Shown: positions 16,375 to 58,532 of the stretch, piece by piece
How positions within the stretch are numbered: position 1 is the first letter of the stretch
Layout: every line of letters begins with the position of its first letter
Assembly (NCBI GenBank): GCA_934792465.1
Contig: CAKVOK010000002.1
Coordinates: forward strand, 23,109-87,108
Direction of reading: 5' to 3'
Source of the DNA: an uncultured Clostridia bacterium
GTDB taxonomy: Bacteria; Bacillota; Clostridia; RUG12999
Length of the DNA: 64,000 nucleotides
Translations under genes and position numbers: made by a program
Notes under the pieces: generated by a model
What the model was told of the DNA's origin: nothing
Databases searched by the model: none
The model's input: only the letters and a program-made list of their open reading frames with translations

Positions 16375-18060
16375 ATGGCAAAGAAAATATTGGCAATGTT
16401 ACTCGGCGCAATGCTTATGTGCAGCGGATTAGCGTCGGCGGAAGAAGTAATCACGGGCGACATCGTAATGGACGAGAGATTCAATTACGGCAGTGCAGCC
16501 GAAATGTACGAGGCTACGGGCGCAAGCCTCTGGGGCGACGGTTCGAGCGTAGACGTGGGCGTGGCAAACGGTGCGCTTATGTTCAAGTCGCTTTCTACGG
16601 GTACGGACGGAATCAAGCTTCCGGTTTCGACGGAAACGGAGAACGAGGGCAAACAAACGATTGAAATGAAAATTAAGCGTTCCGACGCAAATACTTTCTG
16701 GCAGATACAGTTCTTCGGAAAAGAAGCAAACGGAACGGAAAGATATTTCACAATGCTTGACCTCAACAAAAGCGGACTCGTCTGGAAAGACGCAAATATC
16801 GGTTGGGGCGGCGCTCAAACTCTTACGACAATAAAGGGTATGGAGCCGCAGACAACGCTTGGTGTGCTGAATACATATATGAAGATAAAATTGGTTATCG
16901 ATTGGAACACTGATAAGATTAAACTCTTCATCAACGATAACGAACAGGATATTGCACCTTTTGTATTTAACCAGGCGGCAAATGTTGTAAAGGTATCGAG
17001 AATAGACCTTTTGAAACAGTCCGCAAGTGCCGATAATACAGTAACAAGCATAGACAGAATCAGAGTGGTAAACGGCGAAATAAACAATTATACGCCGGAG
17101 TCCGCATACGAGTATAAAGAAGAATTCAGCTATACAAATGTCGAAGATGTATTTGAAAACGGTATCGGAAAAACATCTGCTGTGGATGCCAATATCCCGG
17201 AAAACGATCCGAGTACGCTGTATGTACTTGACGGCAAGGGCAGATTGCAGATAAAGCAAAGTACGGCAAACGGTGAAACCGCACAGACAAACGGTCTGTG
17301 GATACCGGTTTCCGCATCGCAAGCGGACGTAAAATACATTGAGATGAGAATCAAAAGAAGCGGCAAAGCCAAAGCATGGTATAATATGACGGCATACGGA
17401 GTAAATGCGAATGGAGCGAGAAGAGCCGTTACAATGCTTGAACACGTAAACAATAAAAACGGCTTGCAGTGGAAAGGCGAGCCCTGGAGCTGGACAGGCG
17501 GCGGAAACATAAAAACTCTGAAAGACGGCAGAACGGTTGATTCCATTGCACAGTGGACGGTTGTAAAGCTGAAAATCAACTTTGCAAATAAATCGGTAGA
17601 CGGACTCTGGATAGACGGAGAAAAACAGGACACATGCCCGAAATTCTTTACAAGCGATGTAGTAGCGCTTGAGGGAATTACATTCAGCAAACAGGTTTCG
17701 ACATCAAACAACGCATGGGTAGGTATTGATTATATCCGTGTTTGGGACGAGCAGTCTGAAGAAAACAAGCTTGACGTTGAGCTTATGGAGGACAGCGGAA
17801 CATATACGGTAAACGCAGTAATGAACGACCTCGGATATTTCAAATCGAATGTTGTCGTAGCATATTATGACGAGGCCGGCAAGATTATCGGAATAGACAC
17901 AACAAGTCTGGACAAAATGACAACGCTTGACAACGGCATGGTTGTAAAATCAGCTTCATTTACACCAAATCTTGCGAATATTAAAAAAGCAAAGGTAATG
18001 GCAGTTGATTCATTAACAAACTTTGCGCCGATGTGTAATAGTATGGAATTAACAAAATAA
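16375..18060 (+). CDS. Secreted protein with two tandem ConA/LamG-like beta-sandwich domains (KIKRS...FWQ...G..R.F..LD.NKSGL.WK motif) and a C-terminal beta domain
   Basis: It has a signal peptide (MLMCSGLASA). An internal duplication is visible: MKIKRSDANTFWQIQFFGKEANGTERYFTMLDLNKSGLVWK and MRIKRSGKAKAWYNMTAYGVNANGARRAVTMLEHVNNKNGLQWK. The same domain type occurs in the 20749 protein. Confidence 0.5.
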   Translation: MAKKILAMLLGAMLMCSGLASAEEVITGDIVMDERFNYGSAAEMYEATGASLWGDGSSVDVGVANGALMFKSLSTGTDGIKLPVSTETENEGKQTIEMKIKRSDANTFWQIQFFGKEANGTERYFTMLDLNKSGLVWKDANIGWGGAQTLTTIKGMEPQTTLGVLNTYMKIKLVIDWNTDKIKLFINDNEQDIAPFVFNQAANVVKVSRIDLLKQSASADNTVTSIDRIRVVNGEINNYTPESAYEYKEEFSYTNVEDVFENGIGKTSAVDANIPENDPSTLYVLDGKGRLQIKQSTANGETAQTNGLWIPVSASQADVKYIEMRIKRSGKAKAWYNMTAYGVNANGARRAVTMLEHVNNKNGLQWKGEPWSWTGGGNIKTLKDGRTVDSIAQWTVVKLKINFANKSVDGLWIDGEKQDTCPKFFTSDVVALEGITFSKQVSTSNNAWVGIDYIRVWDEQSEENKLDVELMEDSGTYTVNAVMNDLGYFKSNVVVAYYDEAGKIIGIDTTSLDKMTTLDNGMVVKSASFTPNLANIKKAKVMAVDSLTNFAPMCNSMELTK

Positions 18061-18079
18061 GCTATTCAAGGAGAAAAAG

Positions 18080-20722
18080 ATGAAAAAGAACAAACGAGTT
18101 ATTGTCGCATTAACAGCGCTTTTGGTGCTGAACGTCTTTTCGTTCGGCACATATGCGAAAATTACGGATAAAATGACGGCGGATCTGAACGCATACGGTA
18201 TTTTGAAGGACGAACGCTTTGAAGATAAGATTACGAGAGCGGAATTTTCAGCAATGATTGTAAGACTTCTGAAAATCGATACAAGCTCATATCCGATTGA
18301 AAAATCTCCGTTCGTTGACGTGAATGAGGACGATTGGTTTTATAATGAAATTAACATTATGAAAAGCATTAAGATAATCGACGGATATAACAGCACGGAA
18401 TTTCGGCCGTTTGAAGATGTAACATATGAGCAGGCGGTGAAAATTGTCGTATGCGCACTCGGATATAAGGATATTGCCGAGAGTAAAGGCGGTTATCCGG
18501 ACGGGTATATCAGCGTTGCGTCGTCGCTGAATCTGCTGAACGGCGTAGGCAGCGACAGCGGTGTAATGCTCAGAGAAAATGCGGCACGTCTTGTTTATAA
18601 CGCACTTGACGTAAGCCTTATAACGTATGATTATACGGGCGGCATGACGACAGACAGCGACAACACGCTGCGAAAAATCCACGAAACGCTTGCGGACGGC
18701 AGAGAAATCATTGTCAAAAAAGGCGTCATAACGGCAAACTACGAGCTGGGACTCGTGCGCAGTATTCCGAATATAAAAGAAAATCAGGTTGAAATAAACG
18801 GCGAGATTTTCAATGCCGGAGATACGAATGCGGCAGAGCTTGTCGGCATGAAAGTGGAATACCATGCAATAACGGGCGATGATAGCGTGCCGACGCTTTT
18901 AAACGTAAGAGTAACGGACGATAACTCGGTTCTTTCCATCAACGGCAGCGACTTTGACAGAGTAGATGGAAAAACTCTTTATTACACGGAAAACGGAAAA
19001 GACGAAAAGCTTTCGCTTTCCGAAAACAAAATTTATGTAAGAAATTATGATGTCGTTTCGGGATATACCGATAAGGACATAACACTGAAAAACGGCTCTA
19101 TGACGCTTGTGGATAACGACGGAGATGAAAGCTACGATATAATCTTTGTTGAAGAATATGAAAATATAAGAGCGGAAAAATATGAGAACGGCAAAGTGTT
19201 TTTTGCCGAAAACAGAACGTTTGAGGGCAGCACGCTGATTGATATAGACGAGGACAACGATATTAAATATATTCTGCTGGCATCTCAGACGGAAAGCATA
19301 GCCTTGGACAAGGCGGAGGAATATATAAAAGAAAACAGTATATTGAGTATGCTGTTCTCCGCAGATAAAACAGTGCTGAAAATCATTGTTACGAACAAAA
19401 CGGCGGAGGGAAAGATAGAACAGTACAGCGAGGAAGATAATAATATTACGATTGGCGGCGAAACATACGATATGACGGAAAATGTAATATCGGATGCGGC
19501 AATCGGCGATAATGTAACGGCATATCTGGATTTCGGCGGAAAAGTATGCGAGATTAAAAGAACGGAAAACGGCGAAAAGAAATATGCGTATGTTATTGCG
19601 GCAAAAGAGAAAAACGGAATATCGGGCACGATTGAAATAAAGGTGCTTGTTCCGGGAGAGCTTAAAGCGGATATTAAAATAGACGACAGCGATGAGGATA
19701 ATACAACGTCCTTGCCGATACTGAAAGGACATAACAGCGGAATAGAAGTGCTTACGCTCAGGGATAGGGTAAGCTTCGGCGGCAAATCGCTGAAAGGCGA
19801 CAAGCTGATTGAAGCGCTGAATGATAACAGGCTCATAAGATATACTTTGGACAGCAACGGAGAAATTTCAAAAATAGAAATTCCCGAAAGAACGGGTACG
19901 GGCGAACAGCGTACATACAATGCTTATGAGAAAATCTTCGGAAAAACCGGAACGGGAGCATTTGCGATAGATGATAACAGCGTCGGCATATGTCTGCCGA
20001 AAAACGAGATAAATACAGAGGACGATTATTACACCGAGATAGAACTGAACAACGGTGAAAAATACAGCGTTAAAGGATATAATGTCGATGAAAACACGCA
20101 TTGTGCGGAGATTATAGTGCTTACGCTGGAAATGGATTCGAGCATAAAAGAAGCGATTAACGATTCGAGCGACCCGGCAATTGTATGCAAGGTTACAACG
20201 GAGCTGAACGATGAGGAAACGGCGGCGAAAAAAGTCGTGTTCCTGAGCGAGGGAAAAGAAATGACGAAATTCGTAAGCCCCGGTTCGAGTGCGGACAGCG
20301 AGCTTCTGGAAACGGGAACGGTGTTCTATTATGCCGAAAACTTCAAGGGAGATATTGTAGAAGTTAAAACAGTGGAGCATCTTAAAGGCAACAACGGCAT
20401 ATACAGCGAGGGCAGCCCGACTACGGAACAGAAAATACTCGGCGAAATGATAAAGGTAACTCCGAATCAGCTGAGCGACAACGGAAACAGATTCGTATAC
20501 GAGGTATTGCTCAATACGGGTTTGTCGGATTATGAAACGCTTAATATAAATGTAAGAAACACACCGCCGATATTTGTGTATAACGAAAGAACCAACACCG
20601 TAAGATGCGGCACATTGGAGGACATCGTGCCTACATGGAGAGCGTCCGGCAGTGCGGTTTCAAAAATATTTGCGGAGATAAGATATTCAAAGGTGAAAGC
20701 TGTTGTGGTAACGGAGCGGTAA
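18080..20722 (+). CDS. S-layer homology (SLH) domain protein with N-terminal SLH repeats and a large beta-rich extracellular region
   Basis: It has a signal peptide. The SLH repeats near the N-terminus are ITRAEFSAMIVRLL, IIDGYNSTEFRPFEDVTYEQAVKIVVCALGY and GYPDGYISVASSLNLLNG. It is a paralog of the 42611 protein. Confidence 0.65.
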   Translation: MKKNKRVIVALTALLVLNVFSFGTYAKITDKMTADLNAYGILKDERFEDKITRAEFSAMIVRLLKIDTSSYPIEKSPFVDVNEDDWFYNEINIMKSIKIIDGYNSTEFRPFEDVTYEQAVKIVVCALGYKDIAESKGGYPDGYISVASSLNLLNGVGSDSGVMLRENAARLVYNALDVSLITYDYTGGMTTDSDNTLRKIHETLADGREIIVKKGVITANYELGLVRSIPNIKENQVEINGEIFNAGDTNAAELVGMKVEYHAITGDDSVPTLLNVRVTDDNSVLSINGSDFDRVDGKTLYYTENGKDEKLSLSENKIYVRNYDVVSGYTDKDITLKNGSMTLVDNDGDESYDIIFVEEYENIRAEKYENGKVFFAENRTFEGSTLIDIDEDNDIKYILLASQTESIALDKAEEYIKENSILSMLFSADKTVLKIIVTNKTAEGKIEQYSEEDNNITIGGETYDMTENVISDAAIGDNVTAYLDFGGKVCEIKRTENGEKKYAYVIAAKEKNGISGTIEIKVLVPGELKADIKIDDSDEDNTTSLPILKGHNSGIEVLTLRDRVSFGGKSLKGDKLIEALNDNRLIRYTLDSNGEISKIEIPERTGTGEQRTYNAYEKIFGKTGTGAFAIDDNSVGICLPKNEINTEDDYYTEIELNNGEKYSVKGYNVDENTHCAEIIVLTLEMDSSIKEAINDSSDPAIVCKVTTELNDEETAAKKVVFLSEGKEMTKFVSPGSSADSELLETGTVFYYAENFKGDIVEVKTVEHLKGNNGIYSEGSPTTEQKILGEMIKVTPNQLSDNGNRFVYEVLLNTGLSDYETLNINVRNTPPIFVYNERTNTVRCGTLEDIVPTWRASGSAVSKIFAEIRYSKVKAVVVTER

Positions 20723-20748
20723 TACATTGATTGGGGAAAGGAAGAAAA

Positions 20749-23700
20749 ATGATGATAAAAAAATTAGTTTCGGTGTTTTTGATTTCTTGTTTAGCCGTAA
20801 TGCCGTCATTTGCGGAAATTTCCGATGATGTGTATGAAGCGGAAAGCGTGTACGAATCCGAGGACGTTCAACTTTTTGCGGCGGAATCGGCACAGGAACC
20901 TGTCGGCGGATATGTCGTAAATGAAAATTTCGATTATGCAACTCCCGAAGAAATGCTTGACGAAAGCACGGGAATCGGTATGTTTCCGATGATTAACCCG
21001 TATATCGACGATAAATACGGAAGCACGGTAATTACGTTTGAGGACGGAATAATGTCGATGAAGCAGAACAATCCGAACGGAACGTCTTCCGTTACGAACG
21101 GCGTTGTTTTGCCGATACCGAACAAAGAGGGCGACACGACAACGCAGACGGTGGAATTTAAGATAAAAAGAAATTCAAAAACCGCATTTTGGCAGTGTAT
21201 GTTCTACGGATATAATGCCGCAGGCGCAAAGCGTGAGTTCGGTATTCTCGATATGAACAAGAGCGGCCTCGGCTGGAAAGGCACAAACGGCGCATGGGGC
21301 GGCTCGGGAGCGGGCAGCATAACGAAGCTGGACGGAAAAGACAGCAGAAATATAATAAATATTATAAACGAGTGGATTGTTGTAAAAATGGATTTTGATT
21401 TTAAAAACCAGGTTATCACACTCTATATAAACGGTGAAAAGCAATCAAAAGCACCTGTGTTTTATTCGGGTGCGGGCGTTGTTAAGATGTCGAATTTCTG
21501 TATTTTGAAACAAACGGGAAGCACGCACGGAACAATATCCCAGGTTGATTATTTCAGAATGTGGAACAATGAAAGAGAACTTCTGAAACAGGAGCTTGAC
21601 GCAATTTCCGTATCGGAACTTACGGACGAGCATCTTTCGGAGATAACCTCCGACCTGAAACAGCCGCTCATATCGCAGGGTTCTCCTTACGGCGGAAATA
21701 TTACATGGAAATCGAACAAGCCGGAGGTTATTTCAAACGACGGTATTGTTACAAGACAGGAAAATGATGAAAGCGTAATCCTTACGGCAACGGACGAATT
21801 GGGATCGGTTAAGGTGGCGAGAAGCTTTTATTTCAACGTAAAGGGAAATAATTCGGCGGATTTTGACCCGACAGGATATTATCTCGTGTATGAAAACGAT
21901 TTTTCATCGGGAGAAGCGGACACAAGCTGGGCATTGCGTGCAACGGGAAATTCCAAAACAGCTATGGAGGACGGAAAGATTGCGGCAGTTAAAGAATCGC
22001 AATCCAACACGGTAAGCGCAAAGCTTAATATTCTCGGTGCGGAAGATATATACGGCGTATCGGGAAAAGTATATGTATTTGCCGATGTCGGAGCGGAAAA
22101 TATTGCGGATATGGAGATGTCGCTGCTCGACAGCTCGTCCAAAACAATTGCAAAAATATCGTTTGATAAGCTCGGCTGTTTTGCGGCGGCGGGAACGTAT
22201 CTTTCGGGCGGTACGGAGCAGTATTCCGGCTCATATCCATATCCGAACGGAGATTATGTAAAGGTGAGATTTGAGGCAGACCCCGTAGCCGGAAGCTTTA
22301 AGCTTCGGATAAACAATATCCCGGTTACGATAGACGGAGATGATATGCTGCCGAATATAAACCAGACAACGAATATACAGTCCGTGCTTTTCAGAATAAA
22401 TTCGGGAACCGAATATCCGGCAAAAATGACAGTGGACAACGTAAAGGTGTATATTCCCGATGAAAAAAGAATGGAAATGGCGAAAAACAGGGTTGTTTTC
22501 GACGCTATAAGAATGGCAAACAGCAAAGAAAGCCATATAACGGGCGATTTGAATTTGTTCACGGATAAGTATCTCGGTACGGATATATCTTGGGAATCGG
22601 ACAAACCGAATATAATCTCGGCGGACGGCAAGGTAAACCGCCCGACAGACGCAGCGGCGGATGTGACGCTGACGGCAGTAATCAGTATGGGCGAACAAAA
22701 GGAAAACGTGGTATTTAATCTTAAGGTTATGAAAGACGACCCGTATAATTATGCTTTTGAAAGAAAGGTAACGTCAAATCTTTCGGCACAGCAAGGCAGC
22801 AGCATAAATTATATCAACGATGGTGATACGGAAACGAAATACATAACGGTTGCAGCGGGAAAATCAATGAATATCCTTGTCGATATGGACGGAATGTATA
22901 ATATCAACAGACTTATAATTCCGGGCGGACTTGATACGATAACGGGATATAAAATAGAGGTTTCCGAAAACAATTCCGAATATACGGAGGTTGCGTCCGG
23001 CGAGAAGCTTGAAAAAACAACGGCATTTAAACTTGTAAAGGCAAAATATTTAAGACTTACGGTAGAAAAAGAAAGCGGCGTTTCGGTCGAAATTCCCGAA
23101 CTGGAAATAAGAACCGAATTTACGGACGAAGAAGCGGCAGACGCAGACCTTGAAGCGTTTGCGCCGAATCTGCCGAAAAGTACAACGGAAAATATTACTT
23201 TGCCAACAGAGGGACAATACGGCAGCACGATAACCTGGACTTCGAGCAAGCCCGATGTTATTTCGCCGGCAGGTATTGTGAACAGGGGAAGCGAAACGGT
23301 TACGGTTATCCTGACGGCGGAAATCAGAAAAGGCAGCATTGCAAAAACAAAAACGTATCAGGTATCTGTAACGGGAAAACAGACGTCATCGTCCGGCGGC
23401 GGTGGCGGCGGAGGAGGAAAATCTTCCGCAAAGTCAAGTTCATACATACCGGTTATATCCGTTGAAAATCCTCCGGCGGAGGAAGTAATATTCAGCGATT
23501 TGGCAGGTGCGGAATGGGCGAAAGAATATATAATCGCACTTTATAACAAGGGAGCGGTAAACGGATACGGAAACAAAACGTTTGCGCCGTTTAACAATGT
23601 AACCCGCGAGGAATTTGTGAAAATACTTATCATCGCATTTGATATAGCACCGCAGACTGCGGAAATAAGCTTCGGTGACTGCGAAAAAGGAATGTGGTAT

Positions 23701-24027
23701 GCAGACTATATAGAAACAGGCGTTAAAACAGGTATTGTAAACGGAATGAGCGACAGCCGTTTCGGCATCGGCGAATACATAACACGTGAAGATATAATCA
23801 CGCTTACCGCCCGTGCGCTCGAATATAAGGGCATAGCGAATACGGGTGCGGATACTGCGCCTCCGGATATGGCAGATGTCAGCGCATACGCTCAAAATGC
23901 GGTGCGTATGCTTATGGGATATGATATAGTAAACGGAGATACGAATGGAAAAATCAATCCGAAAAGCTTCGCAACAAGAGCCGAAACCGCTAAGATAATC
24001 GGAAAGGCAGCGGCACTTATAAAATAA
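20749..24027 (+). CDS. Large secreted multidomain surface protein. Its domains, in order: ConA/LamG-like, three Ig-like (Big) repeats, F5/8 type C (discoidin) carbohydrate-binding domain, poly-Gly linker, three C-terminal SLH repeats.
   Basis: It has a signal peptide. The KIKRNSKTAFWQ...LDMNKSGLGWKG domain is shared with the 16375 protein. Three ITW.S.KP.VIS..G.V.R repeats follow. The discoidin motif is INDGDTETKY...YNINRLII...YKIEVSENNSEYTEV. The linker is SSSGGGGGGGGKSS. The three SLH repeats are FSDLAGAEWAKEYIIALYNKGAVNGYGNKTFAP...TREEF, ...GMSDSRFG...ITRED and ...GKINPKSFATRAE. I place the start at ATG 20749, after a GGAAAGGAAG RBS. Confidence 0.7.
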   Translation: MMIKKLVSVFLISCLAVMPSFAEISDDVYEAESVYESEDVQLFAAESAQEPVGGYVVNENFDYATPEEMLDESTGIGMFPMINPYIDDKYGSTVITFEDGIMSMKQNNPNGTSSVTNGVVLPIPNKEGDTTTQTVEFKIKRNSKTAFWQCMFYGYNAAGAKREFGILDMNKSGLGWKGTNGAWGGSGAGSITKLDGKDSRNIINIINEWIVVKMDFDFKNQVITLYINGEKQSKAPVFYSGAGVVKMSNFCILKQTGSTHGTISQVDYFRMWNNERELLKQELDAISVSELTDEHLSEITSDLKQPLISQGSPYGGNITWKSNKPEVISNDGIVTRQENDESVILTATDELGSVKVARSFYFNVKGNNSADFDPTGYYLVYENDFSSGEADTSWALRATGNSKTAMEDGKIAAVKESQSNTVSAKLNILGAEDIYGVSGKVYVFADVGAENIADMEMSLLDSSSKTIAKISFDKLGCFAAAGTYLSGGTEQYSGSYPYPNGDYVKVRFEADPVAGSFKLRINNIPVTIDGDDMLPNINQTTNIQSVLFRINSGTEYPAKMTVDNVKVYIPDEKRMEMAKNRVVFDAIRMANSKESHITGDLNLFTDKYLGTDISWESDKPNIISADGKVNRPTDAAADVTLTAVISMGEQKENVVFNLKVMKDDPYNYAFERKVTSNLSAQQGSSINYINDGDTETKYITVAAGKSMNILVDMDGMYNINRLIIPGGLDTITGYKIEVSENNSEYTEVASGEKLEKTTAFKLVKAKYLRLTVEKESGVSVEIPELEIRTEFTDEEAADADLEAFAPNLPKSTTENITLPTEGQYGSTITWTSSKPDVISPAGIVNRGSETVTVILTAEIRKGSIAKTKTYQVSVTGKQTSSSGGGGGGGGKSSAKSSSYIPVISVENPPAEEVIFSDLAGAEWAKEYIIALYNKGAVNGYGNKTFAPFNNVTREEFVKILIIAFDIAPQTAEISFGDCEKGMWYADYIETGVKTGIVNGMSDSRFGIGEYITREDIITLTARALEYKGIANTGADTAPPDMADVSAYAQNAVRMLMGYDIVNGDTNGKINPKSFATRAETAKIIGKAAALIK

Positions 24028-24033
24028 TCTGAA

Positions 24034-24080
24034 AAAACCGTCCGATAAAAGACGAAATTATCGACTTATCGGGCGGTTTG
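24034..24080 (+). terminator. Rho-independent terminator (AAACCGTCCGATAA ... TTATCGGGCGGTTT)
   Basis: The inverted repeat lies directly 3' of the 20749-24027 gene. Confidence 0.5.
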
Positions 24081-24089
24081 AACTTAATA

Positions 24090-24118
24090 TTGATTTTTTG
24101 CGCGAAATATGTTATACT
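24090..24118 (+). promoter_or_regulatory. Sigma-A-like promoter TTGATT-17-TATACT for the AraC-type sensor gene
   Basis: The hexamers are read directly, ~30 bp upstream of ATG 24150. Confidence 0.45.
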
Positions 24119-24149
24119 ATATGTATCATAAATCAAAAGGGAGAAGAAA

Positions 24150-26378: not shown

Positions 26379-26420
26379 CTTTATAAAAATGCACAGGACG
26401 CATAAAACAAAAAAGTTTTT

Positions 26421-26464
26421 AAAGAAGTTGCAGTAAAATGAAATCATTTTGCCGCAACTTCTTT
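26421..26464 (+). terminator. Long imperfect hairpin of the AAAATGAAA family (AAAGAAGTTGC..TAAAATGA-AA-TCATTTTG..GCAACTTCTTT), a candidate terminator or attenuator
   Basis: It is read directly. Related hairpins lie at 33934-33968 and 38670-38707. Confidence 0.45.
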
Positions 26465-26476
26465 GCATATAAAACA

Positions 26477-26519
26477 GACTACAAAAATTGACTATGAAAA
26501 AACAGCAATATACGGCGAT
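26477..26519 (+). promoter_or_regulatory. Second copy of the conserved upstream cis-element (GACTAC-N7-GACTAT ... CGGCGAT), 60 bp upstream of the -35 box
   Basis: It is near-identical to 16218-16260 with the same spacing to the promoter. It lies immediately downstream of the AraC-type sensor regulator gene. Confidence 0.5.
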
Positions 26520-26536
26520 AAAGCAAAAGCGGATTA

Positions 26537-26565: not shown

Positions 26566-26616
26566 GTAGATATGTGCAGCAAGGCACGTATGAAAAAGAT
26601 TTCGGAGGACGATGGA

Positions 26617-38882: not shown

Positions 38883-40934
38883 ATGAAAAAAATCACAGAA
38901 ATGAAAAATTTGAAAAAGACTGCCGCCGCACTTACGGCAGCGGTGCTGATGACATCGGCGGCTTCGGCACAGGTTGTCTATGAACAGGATTTCGGAGGCA
39001 CGCAATATGATTTGTTCGGTTCGAATTTCAATTACACATCATTGGGGAATGCAAATTATGATGCAAATTATATAAAATTTTTGTTTCCCGGCGAAACGGT
39101 TGAAAACGAGGACGGAACGACAACACTTAATCCCAAAGACTACGGAACACCGCAATTTGGAATTAATCCGGATACAATAGGACTCAACAATTATGATGCG
39201 GTAAGCTTTTTCTCGATTGAAAACGGGAAAGGTGTAATAACAAAAATAGGAAACCGAGGCACCTACAACCGTTACGGCTTTAAAAGAAGCCTTGCGGAGG
39301 AAACGGCGGCGTTCAACAAAGCCGAATATGAAAAAGAAAACGGTGCAGCACCGGAAGACCAGACCTTTGACAGCGTAATAAAATCGGGTGTGTGGAATTT
39401 TGATTTTACATTGCAGTCGATGCAGAGCGGAAGAAAGTTTTTTATATTGAGAAACGGCGATACGGAAAAGTTTGCCGTAAATCTCGAAAAATGGGGAAGA
39501 AACGTAGGTATTGCAGATACAATAGACAAAGCGTCGGTAAATAAAATCGGTGAAGATAATATTGATAACAACGGCGCAAATTACGGTCATGCCGTGGCAT
39601 GGGACACGGGTGCGGAGGACTTTCTGAGATTGCAGATTGATTTCGACAAGCAGACACTCCAAATTTACAGAAACACAAGAACACCCGAAAATCCGAACTG
39701 GAAGCTTGTAACGAGGATACCGATAAAAGATGAAAGCGGAAGCATTACGGGATATGACGATGAAAGCGGAATATCGCTTGAAAAATTCGGCGTTGATTTG
39801 AGCGAAGGTATAGACAGTTTCGGTTATGAAGAAATGTTCCACGGAAATCCGTGCAGAATGATAATAGATGATATAAAAATTTCAAGAGTTTCGGACGGTG
39901 CGGAGCTGTATTCCTGCAGCTTTGACGATGCGGAAAAGGACAGCTGGTGGGATTACGGTTTTAAAAGCACATCAAAATACACTACGGCTTGGATGGAGGA
40001 CGGCAGATTAAACTATCGTTCGGCAACAAATGACTTAGGAAATACGATAATAGACAGAGAAATAGGCGAGAATGCAGACAGCGGAGTTTGGACGGTAACG
40101 GTGAAGTACTGGGCAGAGGGCTTGGAAATAGGCGGATCAAGCGTTCCGGCATCTATTTCCGGAGGAGTAAGAAGCTTTATAAACTTCCTGAATGATGAGC
40201 ATAATACCTACAGCATGGTAAACGGTTATGTAAATGATGTTGCGCTCGGAATAAGCTGCGGCAATTTCAATTACCCGCATATGTGGCAGGTTACATGCCT
40301 TAACGGAGAAACAAAAAGCGATTTGCTGAATGCGAATTGTAAAAGACCTGACGGAAAGTCGCTGACGATAGAACCGGAAAAAGGTGCGGAGTATAAGTTT
40401 GTATTTGATTTTAATGCGCACAAAATGTATGTATATGCCAAATTCGTATACAACAATCGCAATTTCAGCGTTGTAAATCCCGAGGGATACGATTTGCCGG
40501 AGGGATTCAGCTTCAATAAAATAAGATTGTTTGATACAAGTGCGAATAAAAAAGCGTGGGCGGCATGGGATCACCTTAAAATAGAAAAATTTGACGGCAC
40601 GGAAAATGTAAAAATTACAACGGACAGCGATTTTGTAGGCAGCGGCGATGTTGTAGGTATCGGTGTTGAATCGTTCAGAGCACCGAGCGAGGAATCGAAG
40701 ATCACATACATAGACAGCAGCAGAATCAGTATTGTTTCGGCGATATATTCGGGAAATAAGCTTGTAAACGTTAAGGTTTCGGAAAATGTTCAGCACAGCG
40801 CATTTGAAGAATTTAAAACGGATTTAAGCTTTGACAACAGCGGAGATTATACTGTTAAGGTATTTGCGATGGATTCCGAAAGCTTCAAACCGCTTGCGGA
40901 CGTTAAGGAGCTTACATGGGTTAATATGGACTGA
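38883..40934 (+). CDS. Secreted hypothetical protein (~680 aa) with the N-terminal Y-E-x-D-F motif and ConA/LamG-like beta-sandwich features. It has no SLH domain.
   Basis: It has a signal peptide (AAVLMTSAASAQ), then VVYEQDFGG. The rest is a beta-rich sequence with no recognisable catalytic motif. It is the first gene of the second module. Confidence 0.5.
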   Translation: MKKITEMKNLKKTAAALTAAVLMTSAASAQVVYEQDFGGTQYDLFGSNFNYTSLGNANYDANYIKFLFPGETVENEDGTTTLNPKDYGTPQFGINPDTIGLNNYDAVSFFSIENGKGVITKIGNRGTYNRYGFKRSLAEETAAFNKAEYEKENGAAPEDQTFDSVIKSGVWNFDFTLQSMQSGRKFFILRNGDTEKFAVNLEKWGRNVGIADTIDKASVNKIGEDNIDNNGANYGHAVAWDTGAEDFLRLQIDFDKQTLQIYRNTRTPENPNWKLVTRIPIKDESGSITGYDDESGISLEKFGVDLSEGIDSFGYEEMFHGNPCRMIIDDIKISRVSDGAELYSCSFDDAEKDSWWDYGFKSTSKYTTAWMEDGRLNYRSATNDLGNTIIDREIGENADSGVWTVTVKYWAEGLEIGGSSVPASISGGVRSFINFLNDEHNTYSMVNGYVNDVALGISCGNFNYPHMWQVTCLNGETKSDLLNANCKRPDGKSLTIEPEKGAEYKFVFDFNAHKMYVYAKFVYNNRNFSVVNPEGYDLPEGFSFNKIRLFDTSANKKAWAAWDHLKIEKFDGTENVKITTDSDFVGSGDVVGIGVESFRAPSEESKITYIDSSRISIVSAIYSGNKLVNVKVSENVQHSAFEEFKTDLSFDNSGDYTVKVFAMDSESFKPLADVKELTWVNMD

Positions 40935-48936: not shown

Positions 48937-48956
48937 TATCAAAAGGAGAGAATGTC

Positions 48957-51170: not shown

Positions 51171-51199
51171 CAGAGATACATTAATCGGGAGGAAAGTAT

Positions 51200-54100
51200 A
51201 TGAGTTTCAAAAAAATATGTGCGTTTATGCTGTGCGTATTCATGCTGATTCCGTCGCTTTGTTCGGCGGAGGAAACGCTGTGGACGGAGAAGAATATTTC
51301 CGTGGACGAAACACAGCTGAATTGGGTCGGCGAAAGAAAATTTGATGATGTAAAGCCGATAACGAGAGGAGAAACGGCGGCACTCACGGCAAAGGCTCTC
51401 GGCATGGTTTATGCCGGTGATGACAGAAAATATAAAGACGTAAGCCAGGTATACGGTAACAGAATAAGTGCGGTAACGGCACTCAATATAATGCAGGGCA
51501 GCAGCGACGGATATTTTTATCCGGATTCGTATATTACGAGAGAAGAGCTTGCGGCTGTTGCCGTAAGGGCATATAATGCAGTATCACAGACACCTGTGTC
51601 GGCAGAGATTAAAGAGGATGCATACAACGATTTTGATATGATAAGCGACTGGGCGGCGGAATATGTGTTCGCAGCCGTTCAGCTGAAAGCGATTTCGGCA
51701 AAAAATAAGCTGATACGTCCGAAAGATTACGCAACAAGAGCGGAATGTATAGAGGCTGTGGCAAAGGCGGCAGGCTTAAAAATGTTCGAGTATACCAAAA
51801 CGGAAGCAAAGCAGCAGGATAAGACCGAAGCCGTTCAGAAGCCGCAGCAGGATTCGGGAAAGCTTATAACGGAGGTTAGCGAAGTCGGCGACAGTATTTT
51901 AAATGGCAGAGATATGGGAACCGTTGCCGAACTTGACGCTTCAAAAGATGTCAGCAAGGAATATGAGGTGTATCAAAAAGCGGTTGTAAGGAATCAGATG
52001 GGTACGAGCGGAATCTATATGAAAGCAAGATTTTCGGCAGGGAGTGCGGTAAAGCTTTATGCGGCAAGAACAACCGAGATACCGGAAATCGAAACCTCCG
52101 CACCGTATGCTCCGTCGTCATATCTTCGGGTATGCGACCCGGACGGCACTCTTGTGGGATTTTACGATTTTACGGATATTGAAGGCAAAAAGGCAATAGA
52201 AGTAGTGCCCTCGGTTAAAAAAGAGGGAATATGGACATTTACGTTTACGGGATGCCGTACAAACGATACGGTGGAATTCGGATTCGGCGGTGCTTCGTCA
52301 TGGGGAATAGGCGGCATGTCGGCATTTGTTCCGACAGAAACCACTCCGAACGAGATGTATGTATACTGCCAGCCACAGGCAATGGAAATACAGGTCGTTA
52401 CGGGTGCGAACGCAACGGTTGCGTTCAGCGATGAAACCGGCAAAAAAATAAGTCCCGAAGAGTTTAATTCATCGTGGTACAAGAAAAAATACACAGCAAA
52501 GCCGGCAATCGGCGACAGCGTGTATAAGCTGGAAATCGGCAAAGGCAGAGATGCGATAGCCATAGATATGGCACCGTCGCTGATGTGTCCCACTGCGGAA
52601 ATGGCTAAGGATTTGAAAGGCGGCTGGGTAGAAAGCCACGGCAAGCTTATGCAGGGACCGTTGCAGGCACGAATCAGAGATTTGGCGGTTAATATTGTTG
52701 ACAATTGCAATCTCGATGTCGATATAGGCGAAATTCCGCCGCTGCCGGCAAAGGAAGATATTAAGAATATCATGGCGGAAGCACAGATGTTCGGCAAATA
52801 TGCACCTATAGGCGGATTGAATTATGCTTTTAATATGCAGATTTTAGATACTGATGATATTTTCCTCGGATATATGGCAACGGAAAATGTGAAAAACGGC
52901 ACTGAAAAATTTGCCGATTATCAGGCAGGCGAATTTATGCAGGTAAATTTAAATCCTCTTGACGGAATGAGCGCCGCATTGAGAATACCGGCACAGCTTA
53001 ATTATTTTTACGGCAACGAAGCGCTTATGCGCCGCTGTGAGCTGTATCTTTTGAGTGGACTCTACAGCTTAAGCGAGGATATGTATGCCAGAGAGAACAG
53101 GCTTGATTCCGGTTCGACGGGCACAACGCACGCAGGCTTTTTCTTTAAATATACAACGCACGCATACCAGCTGCTGAAACCGCTTCTCCCGAAAGAAGAT
53201 CTTGAGATTATAGAGGAAGCAATAATAGCATATGCGGACGCACAGCCGAACTACAGGGGATATGTTACAAATCAAATGCTTCATGCTAACGAAGGGCTTT
53301 TGTGTACATATATTTCAACCGGCATCGAGCGTTATCATGAGGCTTGGAAACGTCAGATAAGAACCGTGATAAATCCTGTTAAAGGCTGGGACGGCTTCGG
53401 ATTTAATCACGAGGGCGGATATTATATTGAACAGCTGGGCTGCGATGGAAACTACAGCTGGCTGAATCAGTATTTCTTTGCGAATATGTACCGCGAATAC
53501 AGCTTGCTTGATACGGCAGATGAGGAAATATACACGGCAATGAGAAATATAATACACGAAAATATGGTATTTGAAAGCTATGCATGGCTTACGAATCCTT
53601 TGAACTGTGAGCAGGATTTCCCGATGTCCGATTCTTTTACAAGCCGTACAAAATCGTGGCACGGTTATATTAACGGATTCCCCGGAAAAGAACGTGTTAT
53701 GGATATAGAACCGCTGGCGAAACGCAGACAGCTTTTGCAGTATCATGACGATACGGGACCGTCATTCCCGTCAAGCGTATTTCCGCATTTGCTGAATAAT
53801 GAGGATTGGGCATATCAGCATATAAAGGAGCATTACACGGAATACGACAAGAAATTTGAACAGCACACAGGCGGCTGGACGAACGACTTGTACGGATTGT
53901 TTGAGGACGCATATTACGGCGAGAATAAAGACATGGAACCGGCGCAGCTCCCGTGCGAGGGCGAGGACGGAATCAAAGAATATCAGGGATTTATAGCATA
54001 TAAAAACAAGGGAATCTACGGCTATACGTTTTATAATTTCAGGCAGGAATGGAATCTCCCGGCTATATCGTGGATGGGCGGAGGACCGAACATAATCTGG

Positions 54101-54616
54101 AGCGAAAAAACGGGCGGCAGCCTTATGGGACAGAAGCCAACGGATTATGCAAATCCGAAAAACGTGGATTCACCGGACAAAATAAAACATTCCTGCGTAT
54201 ACTTTACGGACGCTTCGGGAACGTTCATAGCAAGCGGAAAGGAAAAAGCTTCGCTGAAATGGATTGAGGAAAACAAAATCTGGGAAATATCCGGAACTAT
54301 GCCGGAAACGAATCAGACGGTTACGTGGAGATATGAGCTTACGGACAGCGGAATCAGAATCGCAGTATCGTTATCATCTCCGAAAGGCATAACAGCATGG
54401 GTTAATCTGCCGTTGTTTGAAAATAATAAGGGAACTGCTTTGAGGGTTGAAAAATACAGCGAGGGCAGCCTGGACATAGGCAGAGGAAGCAATATTATGA
54501 CATACAAATGGGATTCCGATAAATCCAAGCTTGAGGAAGCCGGTGATTTGGTGAGAAATTTAAGAATACAGATCCCGAAAAGCGGAAAAGTCACAATAGA
54601 TATTTCGTGCAGATAG
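51200..54616 (+). CDS. Large SLH-anchored secreted protein (1138 aa). Its domains, in order: N-terminal SLH repeats, beta-sandwich region, predicted (alpha/alpha)-toroid region, C-terminal beta-sandwich. It belongs to no recognisable CAZy family and is a candidate novel glycan-active enzyme.
   Basis: It has a signal peptide. The SLH repeats are ITRGETAALTAKALG, YITREELAAVAVRAY and YATRAECIEAVAKAAG. The conserved block IDMAPSLMCPTAEMAKDLKGGW and a helical region with repeated aromatic-rich helices are shared with the 58537 protein. Confidence 0.55.
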   Translation: MSFKKICAFMLCVFMLIPSLCSAEETLWTEKNISVDETQLNWVGERKFDDVKPITRGETAALTAKALGMVYAGDDRKYKDVSQVYGNRISAVTALNIMQGSSDGYFYPDSYITREELAAVAVRAYNAVSQTPVSAEIKEDAYNDFDMISDWAAEYVFAAVQLKAISAKNKLIRPKDYATRAECIEAVAKAAGLKMFEYTKTEAKQQDKTEAVQKPQQDSGKLITEVSEVGDSILNGRDMGTVAELDASKDVSKEYEVYQKAVVRNQMGTSGIYMKARFSAGSAVKLYAARTTEIPEIETSAPYAPSSYLRVCDPDGTLVGFYDFTDIEGKKAIEVVPSVKKEGIWTFTFTGCRTNDTVEFGFGGASSWGIGGMSAFVPTETTPNEMYVYCQPQAMEIQVVTGANATVAFSDETGKKISPEEFNSSWYKKKYTAKPAIGDSVYKLEIGKGRDAIAIDMAPSLMCPTAEMAKDLKGGWVESHGKLMQGPLQARIRDLAVNIVDNCNLDVDIGEIPPLPAKEDIKNIMAEAQMFGKYAPIGGLNYAFNMQILDTDDIFLGYMATENVKNGTEKFADYQAGEFMQVNLNPLDGMSAALRIPAQLNYFYGNEALMRRCELYLLSGLYSLSEDMYARENRLDSGSTGTTHAGFFFKYTTHAYQLLKPLLPKEDLEIIEEAIIAYADAQPNYRGYVTNQMLHANEGLLCTYISTGIERYHEAWKRQIRTVINPVKGWDGFGFNHEGGYYIEQLGCDGNYSWLNQYFFANMYREYSLLDTADEEIYTAMRNIIHENMVFESYAWLTNPLNCEQDFPMSDSFTSRTKSWHGYINGFPGKERVMDIEPLAKRRQLLQYHDDTGPSFPSSVFPHLLNNEDWAYQHIKEHYTEYDKKFEQHTGGWTNDLYGLFEDAYYGENKDMEPAQLPCEGEDGIKEYQGFIAYKNKGIYGYTFYNFRQEWNLPAISWMGGGPNIIWSEKTGGSLMGQKPTDYANPKNVDSPDKIKHSCVYFTDASGTFIASGKEKASLKWIEENKIWEISGTMPETNQTVTWRYELTDSGIRIAVSLSSPKGITAWVNLPLFENNKGTALRVEKYSEGSLDIGRGSNIMTYKWDSDKSKLEEAGDLVRNLRIQIPKSGKVTIDISCR

Positions 54617-54627
54617 GAGAATTCAAA

Positions 54628-55902
54628 ATGAAAAGAATTTGTTTGTTGTTATGTACGGTAATTTTCTTCGCCATGCCCTGCATGGCGGAGAAAAACGGCA
54701 GAAACTATATTTTTGAAACGGATTTCGGAGGATATACCGAGGGTGACGACGCAATAAAATACTTGGCGTCAACGGGGCTTACGTCAACGTTTTCAGCAGA
54801 AATGGGCGACAGGATTGAGATATGCGACGGTGCTTTGTATGTTGATATATCCGAGAGAAGCAGCGGATTTCCGAGTATGAAAATACCGAAATCCTATACA
54901 CAGGATAAAGACGTGCTTGTATTGGAATTTGATTTGAAGCTTGCCGGGAAATTGAGCGCAATGACGTTTCCGCAGTTTGGTACGATTGCCCAGACGTGGA
55001 TGGGCGTAAGCTCTAACGATACGGCACTTGACGCACGCTTTACGGATGCGTCCGTGACAAGCGGAAACAAATGGAGAAGTGCCGGAGTAATATTCAAATG
55101 GGGAGAAAATGCGCCGTGGTATCATTTTAAATATACAGTTGATGTCGGTGCGTCAAAAATGGCGGTAAACGTGAGCGGCGAACCGAGCTTCAACGACAAT
55201 AACATACCGATATTTTCGGGTTCGGGCATACCCGTAATATCTTTTGATATACGGGGCGGAGCATATATGATAGATAATATAGAGCTTTATACTATGGGCA
55301 AAATGCAGATTAAAAGCTCCGGTATTCAAAACGGCGATGTAAATGTTCCGTGCGAAAAATCCGTAGATATAGAGTTTACACAGGATGTGGACGAAAGCAC
55401 GTTAAACGAAATCACGATATCGGGACTTGAAACCGGAGATTATACCGTAGAAAAGATAAACGGTAATATGGTGCGCATTAAGTTTAAAAAGCCTCTGGAA
55501 TATGCCACCGAATATACAGTGAATGCAGAGAAAATTAAAGCGGTAAACGGACTTGCGGCGGACGGAGCGGTAATAAGCTTTACAACGGAAGCCGCACCGG
55601 AGGTATATATAAAAGACGTTTCCGCAGTTTATGACGGAAATATGCAAACGGTGACGGTAAAGGTTGCGAATACGTCTGCCGAAAGTAAAAGCATGACTCT
55701 GTTTATGGCGGTATACGACGAATATAACAGCTTAACGCAAATGAACTGTATCAGCTGCACTGCGGAAGCGGAAAGCGAGAAAACCGCTGTGCTTGCGCAG
55801 AAGAATGCGAACGGCACGGTGAAACTGTATCTGTGGAACAGTGCAGAGCTTATGCAGCCGTATTGCATGGAATACATGCCGGATTTTACGGAGGGTAACT
55901 GA
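54628..55902 (+). CDS. Secreted ConA/LamG-like domain protein with a C-terminal Ig-like domain (Y-E-x-D-F family member)
   Basis: It has a signal peptide (FFAMPCMA), then NYIFETDFGG. The LamG-like core ends YMIDNIELY. It is followed by Ig-like beta domains. Confidence 0.5.
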   Translation: MKRICLLLCTVIFFAMPCMAEKNGRNYIFETDFGGYTEGDDAIKYLASTGLTSTFSAEMGDRIEICDGALYVDISERSSGFPSMKIPKSYTQDKDVLVLEFDLKLAGKLSAMTFPQFGTIAQTWMGVSSNDTALDARFTDASVTSGNKWRSAGVIFKWGENAPWYHFKYTVDVGASKMAVNVSGEPSFNDNNIPIFSGSGIPVISFDIRGGAYMIDNIELYTMGKMQIKSSGIQNGDVNVPCEKSVDIEFTQDVDESTLNEITISGLETGDYTVEKINGNMVRIKFKKPLEYATEYTVNAEKIKAVNGLAADGAVISFTTEAAPEVYIKDVSAVYDGNMQTVTVKVANTSAESKSMTLFMAVYDEYNSLTQMNCISCTAEAESEKTAVLAQKNANGTVKLYLWNSAELMQPYCMEYMPDFTEGN

Positions 55903-55903
55903 T

Positions 55904-57262
55904 ATGAAAAAAATATTTATTTTAGTAATGCTTGCCGTATCGGTGTTTGGTACATCGTATGCCGCCGGCATTGAAACGATATATGAGGAAGATTTTGAAA
56001 CCACGGGCAAATTAACGGCTGTGCAATACATGGACGAAAATGCGAATATAGAACAGCCGAAAGTAACGAATAGCGGACTGAAAAGTATAGATTTCGTGAA
56101 GGAGGGCGGCTCGAATGCACTTAAATTCACGGGATATACTTCATCGGAGTTGTCGGGAAACGGCACAAAAACAGTAAACTTTGTTTTTGACAAACCGTAT
56201 ACGCTTGCGGATTATCCGAATACCAAGCTTGTTGTTTCGTTCTCGGAATATATAACGCTTGCCGATGCGAATGCATATGAGCATACATATATTCAAGGCG
56301 GCGGGAAAAATGTTATTCAGATGTTCTGGTCGGCAAAGAATGGCGAAGCACCCTTATACAGATGCAATAACAAGGGCAATATAGGCAAAAAAGCGGACTT
56401 GAACCGAAAAATAGAATCAATATATGTTTTTGATATGGAAAACAAAATGTTCGATTTTATTTTCGACGGCAGCGAGTTTAATTCAAATTCTATGATGTCC
56501 GATACGGTTACGCAAATAGACATGTTGGGATTCAAAATAGAAAAAGGACATATATTTTCAGTCGATAATATAAAGGTTTATGCCATATCTGCCGGTGTTC
56601 CGCTCGAAATAACCGAGCCGAGTCTGAACGGCGATGAAAACGTGAACGTGGAAAGCGGATTTACGGCGAAAATTTCTTCGTACATTAAAAATGAAGATAA
56701 AATAAGTGTGACGGCAGGCGGCACAACACTTGATAAAAGCAAATATTCGATAAATCAGAAATATGTTGCCGAGGACGGCGGATATGTTCTGCTTACGCTG
56801 AAATTTAACGAAAAGCTTGATTATCTTACAAAATATGAAATAATATTTGATTCCGAGCTTAAAGACATAACGGGGACGGCGTTGGGTGAAACAAAAATAT
56901 TTGCGTTTACGACCGAAAAAGAAGCGAGAGTATATATGAACGGAGTTGAATGTTTTTCGGGATTTTCGGGCACCGGAGAACGGCTTATATCCGTTGCCGA
57001 GGCAAACGGGAAATATGTAACGTTTCGTATATCGGCGGCAAATGACTTTACATCGGAAAAAACAGGCGCATTTGTTGTAGAATGTTGTGATGCCGACGGA
57101 AATCCGCTCACAAAAGCTGTTCTGGAGGGGAAATTTATTGCCGGAGAAAACAGTTTTACATACGGCACATATATCGGAAACGATATATGCAGCGTGAAAG
57201 CGTATGTTATTGATTCTGTGATCGGCGGGAAAATGATGTCCGATACGGCGGTGTTTGAATAA
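55904..57262 (+). CDS. Secreted ConA/LamG-like domain protein with a C-terminal Ig-like domain (Y-E-x-D-F family member)
   Basis: It has a signal peptide (VFGTSYAAG), then IETIYEEDFETTG. The core ends IFSVDNIKVY. It is a paralog of 57327-58532. Confidence 0.5.
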   Translation: MKKIFILVMLAVSVFGTSYAAGIETIYEEDFETTGKLTAVQYMDENANIEQPKVTNSGLKSIDFVKEGGSNALKFTGYTSSELSGNGTKTVNFVFDKPYTLADYPNTKLVVSFSEYITLADANAYEHTYIQGGGKNVIQMFWSAKNGEAPLYRCNNKGNIGKKADLNRKIESIYVFDMENKMFDFIFDGSEFNSNSMMSDTVTQIDMLGFKIEKGHIFSVDNIKVYAISAGVPLEITEPSLNGDENVNVESGFTAKISSYIKNEDKISVTAGGTTLDKSKYSINQKYVAEDGGYVLLTLKFNEKLDYLTKYEIIFDSELKDITGTALGETKIFAFTTEKEARVYMNGVECFSGFSGTGERLISVAEANGKYVTFRISAANDFTSEKTGAFVVECCDADGNPLTKAVLEGKFIAGENSFTYGTYIGNDICSVKAYVIDSVIGGKMMSDTAVFE

Positions 57263-57326
57263 AATAGATAATTGCATTATAATATTTTACAATTAACCGA
57301 TTTGAATAAACCGAAAGGAGAAAATA

Positions 57327-58532
57327 ATGAAGAAGTTTTTTGCTGCGGTTTCGGCGGCAATATGGCTCACGGTCGGCGTTTCGGCAAACGATAACTGCCT
57401 GATGTATCATGATTTTGAGGGGATTACCGACAATGCCGAAACGTATATTTCGGATACGGAAAGTATTATAACATCAAGTACGAACAGCGGATTGAAAAAT
57501 TATGATTTTATATTTGAAAACGGAAGTACAAGACTTTGCTTTACCGCTTACAAATCCGGAGAATTAACGGGCAATGCATCGAGAAAATTTGCATTTGTGT
57601 TCCCTGAATACAGTCCTGAAAAATATCCCGGCACAAAGCTTGTGCTTGGATATGATGAAACGGTATATGAAAGAAGGGACGGAAACAATATTCATATGAA
57701 TGTGTCCGACGGCACCGGAAAACAGATGACGCAGCTTTTTGCATTCCCGGAGGGAGATTCCGATAAGCTGCGTATGCTTATGAAAGATACGGTATACGTG
57801 CGTCACGGAGAAAATACCGAATACAGGCTGACAGCAGATATAGGTACGCAAAAATTTGTGTTCGGCGTTGGAGAGAATTTCAGCAAGGAGTATGATTTTC
57901 AAAGCAATATATCGGAGATTTCAATGATTTCATGGTTACCGACAAAGAATGAAAAATATTCCCTGGATAATATATATGCATGGGTTGTGCCGAATACGTT
58001 TTCGGTATCGGAATATACAAAAAAAATAAGAGTTTCCGATAAAAAAATATCTGTGTATTTATCAGCTCCGGCGGACAAAACCGTATTGGACAAAATAAGT
58101 GTTAATAATGAGAAAAGCGGATTTTTTGTAACACAGAATTTTAAGAAAGCACAGCTGGATATAGTTCTTAAAAATGTTTCTTACGGCGAAAAGTATAAAA
58201 TAAGCTTTGAGGACGGATTTAAAGACATTGCCGGGAATAAGATGACTGCGGAATTTGAAGCGGTAGCCGAAAGCTTTCCCGAATTTAATATTGATTCATC
58301 ATATGAGCATATCGGAAACGATATAAAATATCGGGCATATGCCGAAAATCCATCCGAAAGCAGTGCAAAAGCATATATTATTGCCGGACTCTATGACGAA
58401 AACGGCATACTTACTCAATGTGCATTTTTTGAAGGTATGTTTAAACCTATGCAAAAGCAGGGATTTGAGGGTGTGTTCAAGGATTGTGCAAATTCAAATG
58501 TAAGGATATATGCGGCAGCAAAAGAGGGGTGA
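57327..58532 (+). CDS. Secreted ConA/LamG-like domain protein with a C-terminal Ig-like domain (Y-E-x-D-F family member)
   Basis: It has a signal peptide (WLTVGVSAND), then CLMYHDFEG. Aligned blocks are TNSGLKNYDF / TNSGLKSIDF and PGTKLVLGYDETVY / PNTKLVVSFSEYI. The core ends YSLDNIYAW. Confidence 0.5.
   Translation: MKKFFAAVSAAIWLTVGVSANDNCLMYHDFEGITDNAETYISDTESIITSSTNSGLKNYDFIFENGSTRLCFTAYKSGELTGNASRKFAFVFPEYSPEKYPGTKLVLGYDETVYERRDGNNIHMNVSDGTGKQMTQLFAFPEGDSDKLRMLMKDTVYVRHGENTEYRLTADIGTQKFVFGVGENFSKEYDFQSNISEISMISWLPTKNEKYSLDNIYAWVVPNTFSVSEYTKKIRVSDKKISVYLSAPADKTVLDKISVNNEKSGFFVTQNFKKAQLDIVLKNVSYGEKYKISFEDGFKDIAGNKMTAEFEAVAESFPEFNIDSSYEHIGNDIKYRAYAENPSESSAKAYIIAGLYDENGILTQCAFFEGMFKPMQKQGFEGVFKDCANSNVRIYAAAKEG

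Follow-up and report, generated by a model that had tools for sequence, protein, structure and literature searches.

Secreted proteins with divergent ConA-like domains, possibly glycan-binding, in two paralogous utilisation cassettes of an uncultured Clostridia bacterium

Six genes in a 64,000-nucleotide (nt) stretch of DNA from an uncultured Clostridia bacterium (GenBank assembly GCA_934792465.1, contig CAKVOK010000002.1, positions 23,109 to 87,108 of the forward strand; hereafter the window) encode secreted proteins, here called o16375, o20749, o38883, o54628 (B1), o55904 (B2), and o57327 (B3), that are predicted to be built from nine divergent copies of a ConA-like beta-sandwich of the PF22585 (Sialidase-like_CBM) or PF13385 (Laminin_G_3) type. 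With moderate confidence, we interpret them as non-catalytic glycan-binding proteins of the lectin or carbohydrate-binding module (CBM) type that serve the enzymes and importers of two paralogous utilisation cassettes, with different specificities among the diverged B paralogs. This interpretation is drawn from the predicted fold, remote homology to CBM and LamG domains, the lack of a conserved polar residue set, gene fusions, and locus context. An original prediction, which had read the six as one new family of secreted paralogs sharing two short motifs, served as the starting point; all six open reading frames (ORFs) are present on the plus strand, at or near the predicted starts.

All-versus-all BLASTP of the six proteins resolved three groups: group A, comprising o16375, with two tandem domains, and the N-terminal domain of o20749 (d1); group B, comprising the tandem paralogs B1, B2, and B3; and group C, comprising o38883 alone, with two predicted domains (d1 and d2). 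Within group A, the tandem domains of o16375, each of ∼220 amino acids (aa), are 32-35% identical to o20749 d1 (E 1e-24 to 1e-33). The group B paralogs have diverged to 21-27% identity; B2 and B3 align over their full length at 26% identity (E 6e-19), and B1 joins them mainly through its Big_5 and C-terminal parts. Profile-profile comparison with hhalign, using alignments of orthologs drawn from syntenic contigs, gave P-values of 1.4e-12 for B1-B2 and 6e-27 for B2-B3, confirming the three as true paralogs. They had also been described as ending in an Ig-like domain, and all three do carry an Ig-like Big_5 domain (Pfam E 4e-11 in B1), but a further C-terminal beta-sandwich lies after it. Between groups, the comparison of A with B was marginal (P 3.7e-4 over the last 54 columns), no BLASTP match linked o38883 to the other five proteins, and no hhalign comparison of A with C, B with C, or the two o38883 domains with each other was significant (P 0.02-0.1 for o38883 d1 and d2). 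The idea of a single demonstrable six-member paralog family was therefore dropped; fold and a common C-terminal domain are the only links of group C to the others.

The relationship of these domains to known families emerged through intermediate sequences. In Pfam, where gathering scores are 27 bits for PF22585 and 27.6 bits for PF13385, o16375 alone matched PF22585, at an off-domain position (17.4 bits, E 0.0043), with nothing at E ≤ 1 for the other five; PF13385 gave a sub-threshold match to o20749 d1 (aa 123-275, 23.6 bits, E 6.2e-5) and none to the remaining five, and a scan of NCBIfam returned nothing relevant. A HMMER search of 1.84 billion representative sequences with a profile of the group B N-terminal domain recovered 30 proteins at E ≤ 1e-3, 12 of them over the whole domain, and the B type was matched in a single one of 185,579 species genomes, that of an uncultured Oscillospiraceae metagenome-assembled genome (MAG). 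The distant relatives are multi-domain proteins in which the matching regions are assigned by Pfam to PF22585 or PF13385, and seven of ten external copies scanned against Pfam matched these models.

A profile made of 14 such outside domain copies and zero window sequences was then compared with the window. By hhalign it matched group B (P 5.9e-16; B1 by itself P 6.3e-10 over 175 columns), group A (P 2.4e-6), and the second ConA-like domain of o20749 (d2; P 7.2e-6), with a non-significant P of 0.02 for the two group C domains; among 25 annotated window proteins all negatives gave P ≥ 0.065. As a hidden Markov model (HMM) run against 238 six-frame ORFs of the window, the same profile returned exactly the six candidates as its top six, with E-values of 3.8e-12 for B2, 6.5e-11 for B1, 1.6e-6 for o20749 (two domain matches), 7.7e-3 for o16375, 0.011 for B3, and a non-significant 0.36 for o38883, noise beginning at 2.6. 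Homology to PF22585 via intermediate sequences holds for group B, group A, and o20749 d2, and could not be demonstrated for o38883. The proposal of a new family accordingly gives way to a narrower one: the domains form a very small new clade of divergent, sub-threshold members of the ConA-like PF22585 / PF13385 superfamily, a kind already known.

Both motifs on which the family had been founded are, as read from the sequences, generic edge-strand signatures of this superfamily, h-h-E/D-x-D/N-F in the first strand and h-D-N/D-I/V-x-V/I in the last. In its literal form, (Y/I/M)-x-(E/H)-x-(D/N/R)-F, the N-terminal motif did not hold up, being found in two of the six proteins and three times window-wide against 1.3 expected; a looser pattern, h-h-x-x-[DNERS]-F, is present where each of the nine domains begins. 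The strand DN[IV]x[VLA][YW] is strongly enriched, as claimed, with six occurrences in 25 window proteins against 0.10 expected by shuffling; four fall in the candidates, and the other two are chance matches in o18080 and a glycoside hydrolase (GH) of family GH88. The pairing of the two motifs in o20749 was mistaken, as they belong to separate domains: the strand MTVDNVKVY closes d2, and the N-terminal motif that had been paired with it is not in d2.

The N-terminal motif repeats at the internal domain starts of o16375 (aa ∼247), o20749 (aa ∼380), and o38883 (aa ∼343), and is thus a feature of domain starts and not of proximity to the signal peptide. It repeats likewise in the duplicated unit of the B3 ortholog of the Oscillospiraceae MAG, a 683-aa protein (contig L001, 11431-13482) whose gene contains two tandem copies of the ConA-like plus Big_5 unit. 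A signal-peptidase-proximal sequence bias as the origin of the motif was ruled out by the internal domain starts together with the 14 external domains. All 14 external copies begin with ..[E/D/Q][E/D/N][D/N]F[E/D/N].. and end with ..[Y/F/L][I/L/F]D[D/N][I/V/L]x[V/I/M].., a result that, given their extraction by motif-based boundaries, is a recurrence at matched domain spacing and not an independent test. Across 28 diverse domains the motif Phe alone is invariant and the motif Asp near-invariant, and no conserved polar or catalytic residue set was found beyond the two strand motifs. In the B2 model described below, both motif segments are beta-strands (aa 23-29 and 217-229, at a predicted local distance difference test score, pLDDT, of about 78-86); analogy with jelly-roll CBMs and GH16 enzymes makes it probable that the acidic residues of these strands bind a structural metal. 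Domains of the PF22585 / LamG type that lie below Pfam thresholds can be flagged quickly by the motif pair E-x-D-F ... D-N-I-x-V.

AlphaFold2 models of B2 (from a nine-sequence alignment) and o38883 were compared with the PDB by Foldseek; the word-indexed search for close relatives had returned 7, 6, and 2 sequences, and the alignments for modelling were consequently shallow. In the B2 model (mean pLDDT 80), an N-terminal sandwich of 13 strands (aa 23-229) is followed by an Ig-like Big_5 domain (aa 244-337) and a C-terminal sandwich (aa 343-452). Its top whole-chain matches are the Gram-positive adhesins Aap, SraP, and YwfG (8deo, 4m00, 7yl4), in which a lectin domain is followed by Ig-like repeats, at low template modelling (TM) scores of 0.19-0.23 and 8% sequence identity; matches to the legume lectins 1lec and 1qnw had target-normalised TM-scores of 0.44-0.47, and further matches included NTNHA, SPRY, the lectin wings of the Vibrio cholerae neuraminidase, and the sialidase BT_1020. 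The o38883 model is less certain (mean pLDDT 66, with 80-90 in d1 and below 50 in the N-terminal motif region, aa 30-62); it matched tandem-repeat galectins, laminin LG4-5, legume lectins, and the RyR SPRY domain, all at low TM-scores, and is consistent with two ConA-like sandwiches. Together with the sub-threshold Laminin_G_3 match of o20749 d1 and the PF22585 / Laminin_G_3 identity of the distant B relatives, these models bear out the ConA/LamG-like fold that had been proposed.

The resemblance of B2 to SraP, the Aap A-domain, and YwfG, each a secreted Gram-positive protein with a lectin-fold head followed by Ig-like domains, raises the alternative that the six are adhesins or structural envelope proteins, whose lectin head on an Ig-like stalk would attach to particles, host glycans, or other cells instead of feeding an importer; the region is also dense in SLH (S-layer homology) envelope proteins. 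The six proteins are indeed secreted, each N-terminus showing on direct reading a basic stretch, a hydrophobic core, and an AxA-type cleavage site with a signal-peptidase-I type end (..ASA/E, ..SFA/E, ..ASA/Q, ..CMA/E, ..SYA/A, ..VSA/N), and they would be located at the cell surface. However, neither LPXTG nor a C-terminal hydrophobic anchor was seen in any of the six, the B proteins, o38883, and o16375 carry no serine-rich repeat, and SLH repeats are restricted to o20749 (Pfam E 1e-28, beside three aBig_2 domains at 6e-51 and F5_F8_type_C at 1e-9), so that the sortase anchor and repeat region of the adhesins have no counterpart here. The genes are moreover set among genes for ATP-binding cassette (ABC) importers, AraC regulators, and proteins resembling carbohydrate-active enzymes (CAZymes), in conserved synteny, a context of nutrient acquisition and not of colonisation; fusion proteins pair the module with an enzyme-like partner, and the TM-scores to the adhesins are low. 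We consider an adhesive or structural role unlikely.

Gene fusions support a role as glycan-binding accessory modules. B3 ends at 58532, nearly abutting the start of o58510 at 58537, a gene for a large secreted protein of no known family. In another genome, the stand-alone gene for P0023 (1379 aa) joins a B3-type ConA-like plus Big_5 unit with a protein of the o58510 type (43% identical over 969 aa); P0022 is a fusion of the same type, and in P0037 an N-terminal B-like ConA domain is joined to SLH and an o18080-like body. In these fusions the ConA-like unit behaves like a portable accessory module of larger proteins, in the manner of a CBM. The o58510 protein, a likely functional partner of the B proteins, is 34% identical over 835 aa to its secreted paralog o51200, each being ∼1140 aa long, and neither matched anything in Pfam (the SLH of o51200 aside), NCBIfam, or the PDB, by single sequence or by profile; the two may represent an undescribed carbohydrate-active enzyme family. 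Tied to them by adjacency and fusion, the nine lectin-fold domains provide handles on the substrate of the locus and on its missing enzyme activity.

Several families of lyases and glycosidases, such as PL7, PL20, and GH16, have a ConA-like fold, and the domains could themselves be catalytic, acting as polysaccharide lyases or hydrolases on the glycan that the neighbouring CAZymes attack. The locus, which encodes a heparinase II/III-like protein and a GH88, probably degrades a uronic-acid glycan, and one bridging external domain scores just under the threshold of PF14099 Polysacc_lyase (28 bits, cut-off 29.9), a match that speaks for catalysis and against a purely binding role. Against catalysis, no lyase or GH model of Pfam matched any of the six at E ≤ 1, no conserved polar residues accompany the two strand motifs, the closest matches in structure are to lectins and adhesins and not to enzymes, and the module is attached, like a CBM, to a larger protein that resembles an enzyme. 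An enzymatic function seems quite improbable on this evidence.

A beta-sandwich of ∼85 aa, here called X, with the pattern ..AxYDxxGxL...VKxFxWD..P, forms the C-terminus of five of the six proteins (o16375, o38883, B1, B2, and B3) and is also carried by o58510 and by the fusion P0023. Isolated X domains had no Pfam match, and an X alignment had none in the PDB. When X HMMs were built leaving out one group at a time and run against the 238 ORFs, o38883 was retrieved at E 1.1e-4 without group C and B1 at 4.7e-7 without group B; o16375 was marginal (0.073) and o58510 not significant (0.48). This domain is the sole sequence-level link of group C to the rest, and it bears on a third alternative, that o38883 is unrelated and its likeness to the others an artefact of short motifs matching by chance and of beta-sandwich folds being so common. 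Neither d1 nor d2 of o38883 reached significance in any sequence test (hhalign P 0.02-0.1, E 0.36-1.2), and its model has the low confidence and low TM-scores given above. Yet three different profiles place o38883 at the top of the non-training ORFs, its C-terminal domain is recovered by an HMM built without it, and it opens its cassette as o16375 opens the paralogous one, the first protein of each having the same layout of signal peptide, two ConA-like domains, and X. A chance likeness is thus improbable in our estimation.

Within this data set, X and SLH never occur in the same protein. The confinement of X to SLH-less proteins suggests that it may serve alternative anchoring or docking. One long shot is that X would be a docking module that tethers the anchor-less lectin-like proteins and an enzyme to the SLH proteins o18080, o42611, o40831, and o51200, forming an S-layer-attached complex for glycan capture and degradation through a new cohesin-dockerin-like pair; if true, this complex would be a Gram-positive counterpart of the Sus surface complex.

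In the mechanism that we favour, the six proteins would bind the target glycan or its fragments outside the cell and serve the nearby enzymes and importer as detached accessory modules, and the divergence of B1-B3 would provide different specificities. Glycan binding is plausible from the locus context and gene fusions, and cooperation with the o51200 and o58510 proteins would fit the same picture. Several observations weigh against it. None of the nine window domains reaches a Pfam gathering threshold, and no solved structure is related in sequence to the ConA-like domains: PDB searches with single sequences (o55904, o38883, o16375, and o58510) found no relatives, and a profile search with the alignment of group B and external domains found nothing significant. 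No ligand-site residues were identified. The inclusion of o38883 depends on a medium-confidence model, non-significant profile scores at rank six, and the C-terminal domain. Five of the six proteins have neither SLH, LPXTG, nor a lipobox. Finally, no known enzyme corresponds to the fusion partner o58510; PF22585 relatives occur within GH28 and GH2 proteins, whereas o58510 matches no recognised CAZyme.

The original prediction had likened the six proteins to the SusE and SusF proteins of Bacteroidota polysaccharide-utilisation loci (PULs). Both systems have several diverged, non-catalytic beta-sandwich proteins in a glycan-utilisation locus with a transporter and enzymes. However, the window has ABC permeases and solute-binding proteins as neighbours, with no SusC or SusD and no outer membrane, and its proteins have ConA-like domains in place of starch-binding modules. 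No lipobox Cys was seen on reading any of the six sequences (the AMPC of B1 does not qualify), and no SusE or SusF_SusE model of Pfam matched at E ≤ 1. The comparison is at best a loose functional analogy. Closer parallels are the PF22585 and PF13385 proteins, with the same predicted beta-sandwich, the same first- and last-strand motifs, and tandem domains appended to carbohydrate-active proteins; unlike these, the window proteins are mostly free-standing and have a distinct C-terminal domain and, in group B, Big_5. A literature search found no papers on PF22585, and one on Gram-positive PULs found nothing specific to such proteins.

Gram-positive polysaccharide-utilisation loci are far less understood than those of Bacteroidota, and their non-catalytic glycan-capture parts are largely uncatalogued. 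The six secreted proteins add putative lectin-fold components to this inventory, across two paralogous cassettes; the more intriguing leads are the X domain, seemingly a substitute for SLH, and the unannotated o51200/o58510 family.

The two cassettes together span 16375-64000 in an Oscillospiraceae-like Firmicute (Table 1). The first contains o16375, o18080, o20749, an AraC-type regulator, a protein with CBM96, heparinase II/III, and SLH domains, an ABC importer, GH88, GH95, and a GDSL esterase; the second contains o38883, o40831 (with SLH), o42611, an ABC importer, an AraC-type regulator, o51200, B1, B2, B3, o58510, and a GH29-like/GH88-like protein. Paralogous between them are the ABC permeases (44-45% identity), the solute-binding proteins (23%), the AraC-type regulators, o18080 and o42611 (∼900-aa distant paralogs, 22% identical over 311 aa), and o51200 and o58510. 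The order o51200-B1-B2-B3-o58510 beside importer and regulator is kept on three other contigs (L001, L002, and L004), one of which belongs to the uncultured Oscillospiraceae MAG, and the neighbourhoods of groups A and C are conserved on L007 and L003, respectively. The heparinase II/III protein of the first cassette is likely a cell-wall-anchored uronate polysaccharide lyase, and the enzymes present suggest that the target glycan is acidic and contains fucose. CBM96 is an alginate-specific family (PMC9971899).

Table 1. Positions in the window of the six genes, their predicted domains, and the large neighbouring genes.
Feature	Position (nt)	Strand	Position or length (aa)	Description
o16375	16375..18060	+	561	Group A; signal peptide
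o16375 domain 1	16441-17088		∼23-238	ConA-like, predicted
o16375 domain 2	17089-17772		∼239-466	ConA-like, predicted
o16375 X	17782-18057		∼470-561	C-terminal beta-sandwich
o18080	18080-20722			N-terminal SLH-like region; ∼800-aa otherwise unannotated body
o20749	20749..24027	+	1092 (from ATG at 20749)	Group A plus extras; signal peptide, ConA-like d1, aBig_2, ConA-like d2, aBig_2, F5/8 type C, aBig_2, Gly-rich linker, 3 SLH
o20749 d1	∼20887-21588			ConA-like, predicted
o20749 d2	∼21856-22464			ConA-like, predicted; different from d1; ends MTVDNVKVY
o20749 SLH	∼23491-24024			3 SLH repeats
Heparinase II/III protein	26614-30393		1259	CBM96, heparinase II/III N- and C-terminal domains, Gly/Ser linker, three SLH repeats
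o38883	38883..40934	+	683	Group C; signal peptide
o38883 d1	38967-39902		∼29-340	ConA-like, predicted; ends MIIDDIKISRV
o38883 d2	39903-40598		∼341-572	ConA-like, predicted; ends AWDHLKIEKF
o38883 X	40650-40931		∼590-683	C-terminal domain
o42611	42611-45394			N-terminal SLH-like region; otherwise unannotated body
o51200	51200-54616	+		SLH plus ∼950 aa unannotated; paralog of o58510
o54628 (B1)	54628..55902	+	424	Group B; signal peptide
B1 ConA-like	54688-55302			Predicted
B1 Big_5	∼55306-55587			Ig-like
B1 X	∼55600-55899			C-terminal domain
o55904 (B2)	55904..57262	+	452	Group B; signal peptide
B2 ConA-like	55964-56602			Predicted; first strand IYEEDF, last FSVDNIKVYAI
B2 Big_5	∼56627-56914			Ig-like
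B2 X	∼56930-57259			C-terminal domain
o57327 (B3)	57327..58532	+	401	Group B; signal peptide
B3 ConA-like	57387-57998			Predicted
B3 Big_5	∼58038-58256			Ig-like
B3 X	∼58269-58529			C-terminal domain
o58510	58537..61956	+	∼1139	Secreted; no known family
o58510 X	∼61690-61950			C-terminal domain

A scan for promoters and terminators stayed at background level and did not inform the operon structure. All genes from 12 to 64 kb lie on the plus strand; over the entire window (1-64000) all sizeable genes do so, and each 4-kb bin shows a positive GC skew (0.135-0.224), which would fit a position on the leading strand of a Firmicute chromosome. The ORF that begins at 61977 and runs beyond the window end at 64000 appears to combine a GH29-like alpha-L-fucosidase region (Pfam Alpha_L_fucos, E 3.8e-10) with a C-terminal part that resembles, by eye, the GH88/GH105-type protein at 33991. 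Upstream of the cassettes, at 12261-15869, two adjoining SLH proteins have C-terminal SLH regions that are 76% identical, and the first of the pair combines a CAP (cysteine-rich secretory protein) domain with repeated N-terminal units of ∼100 aa.

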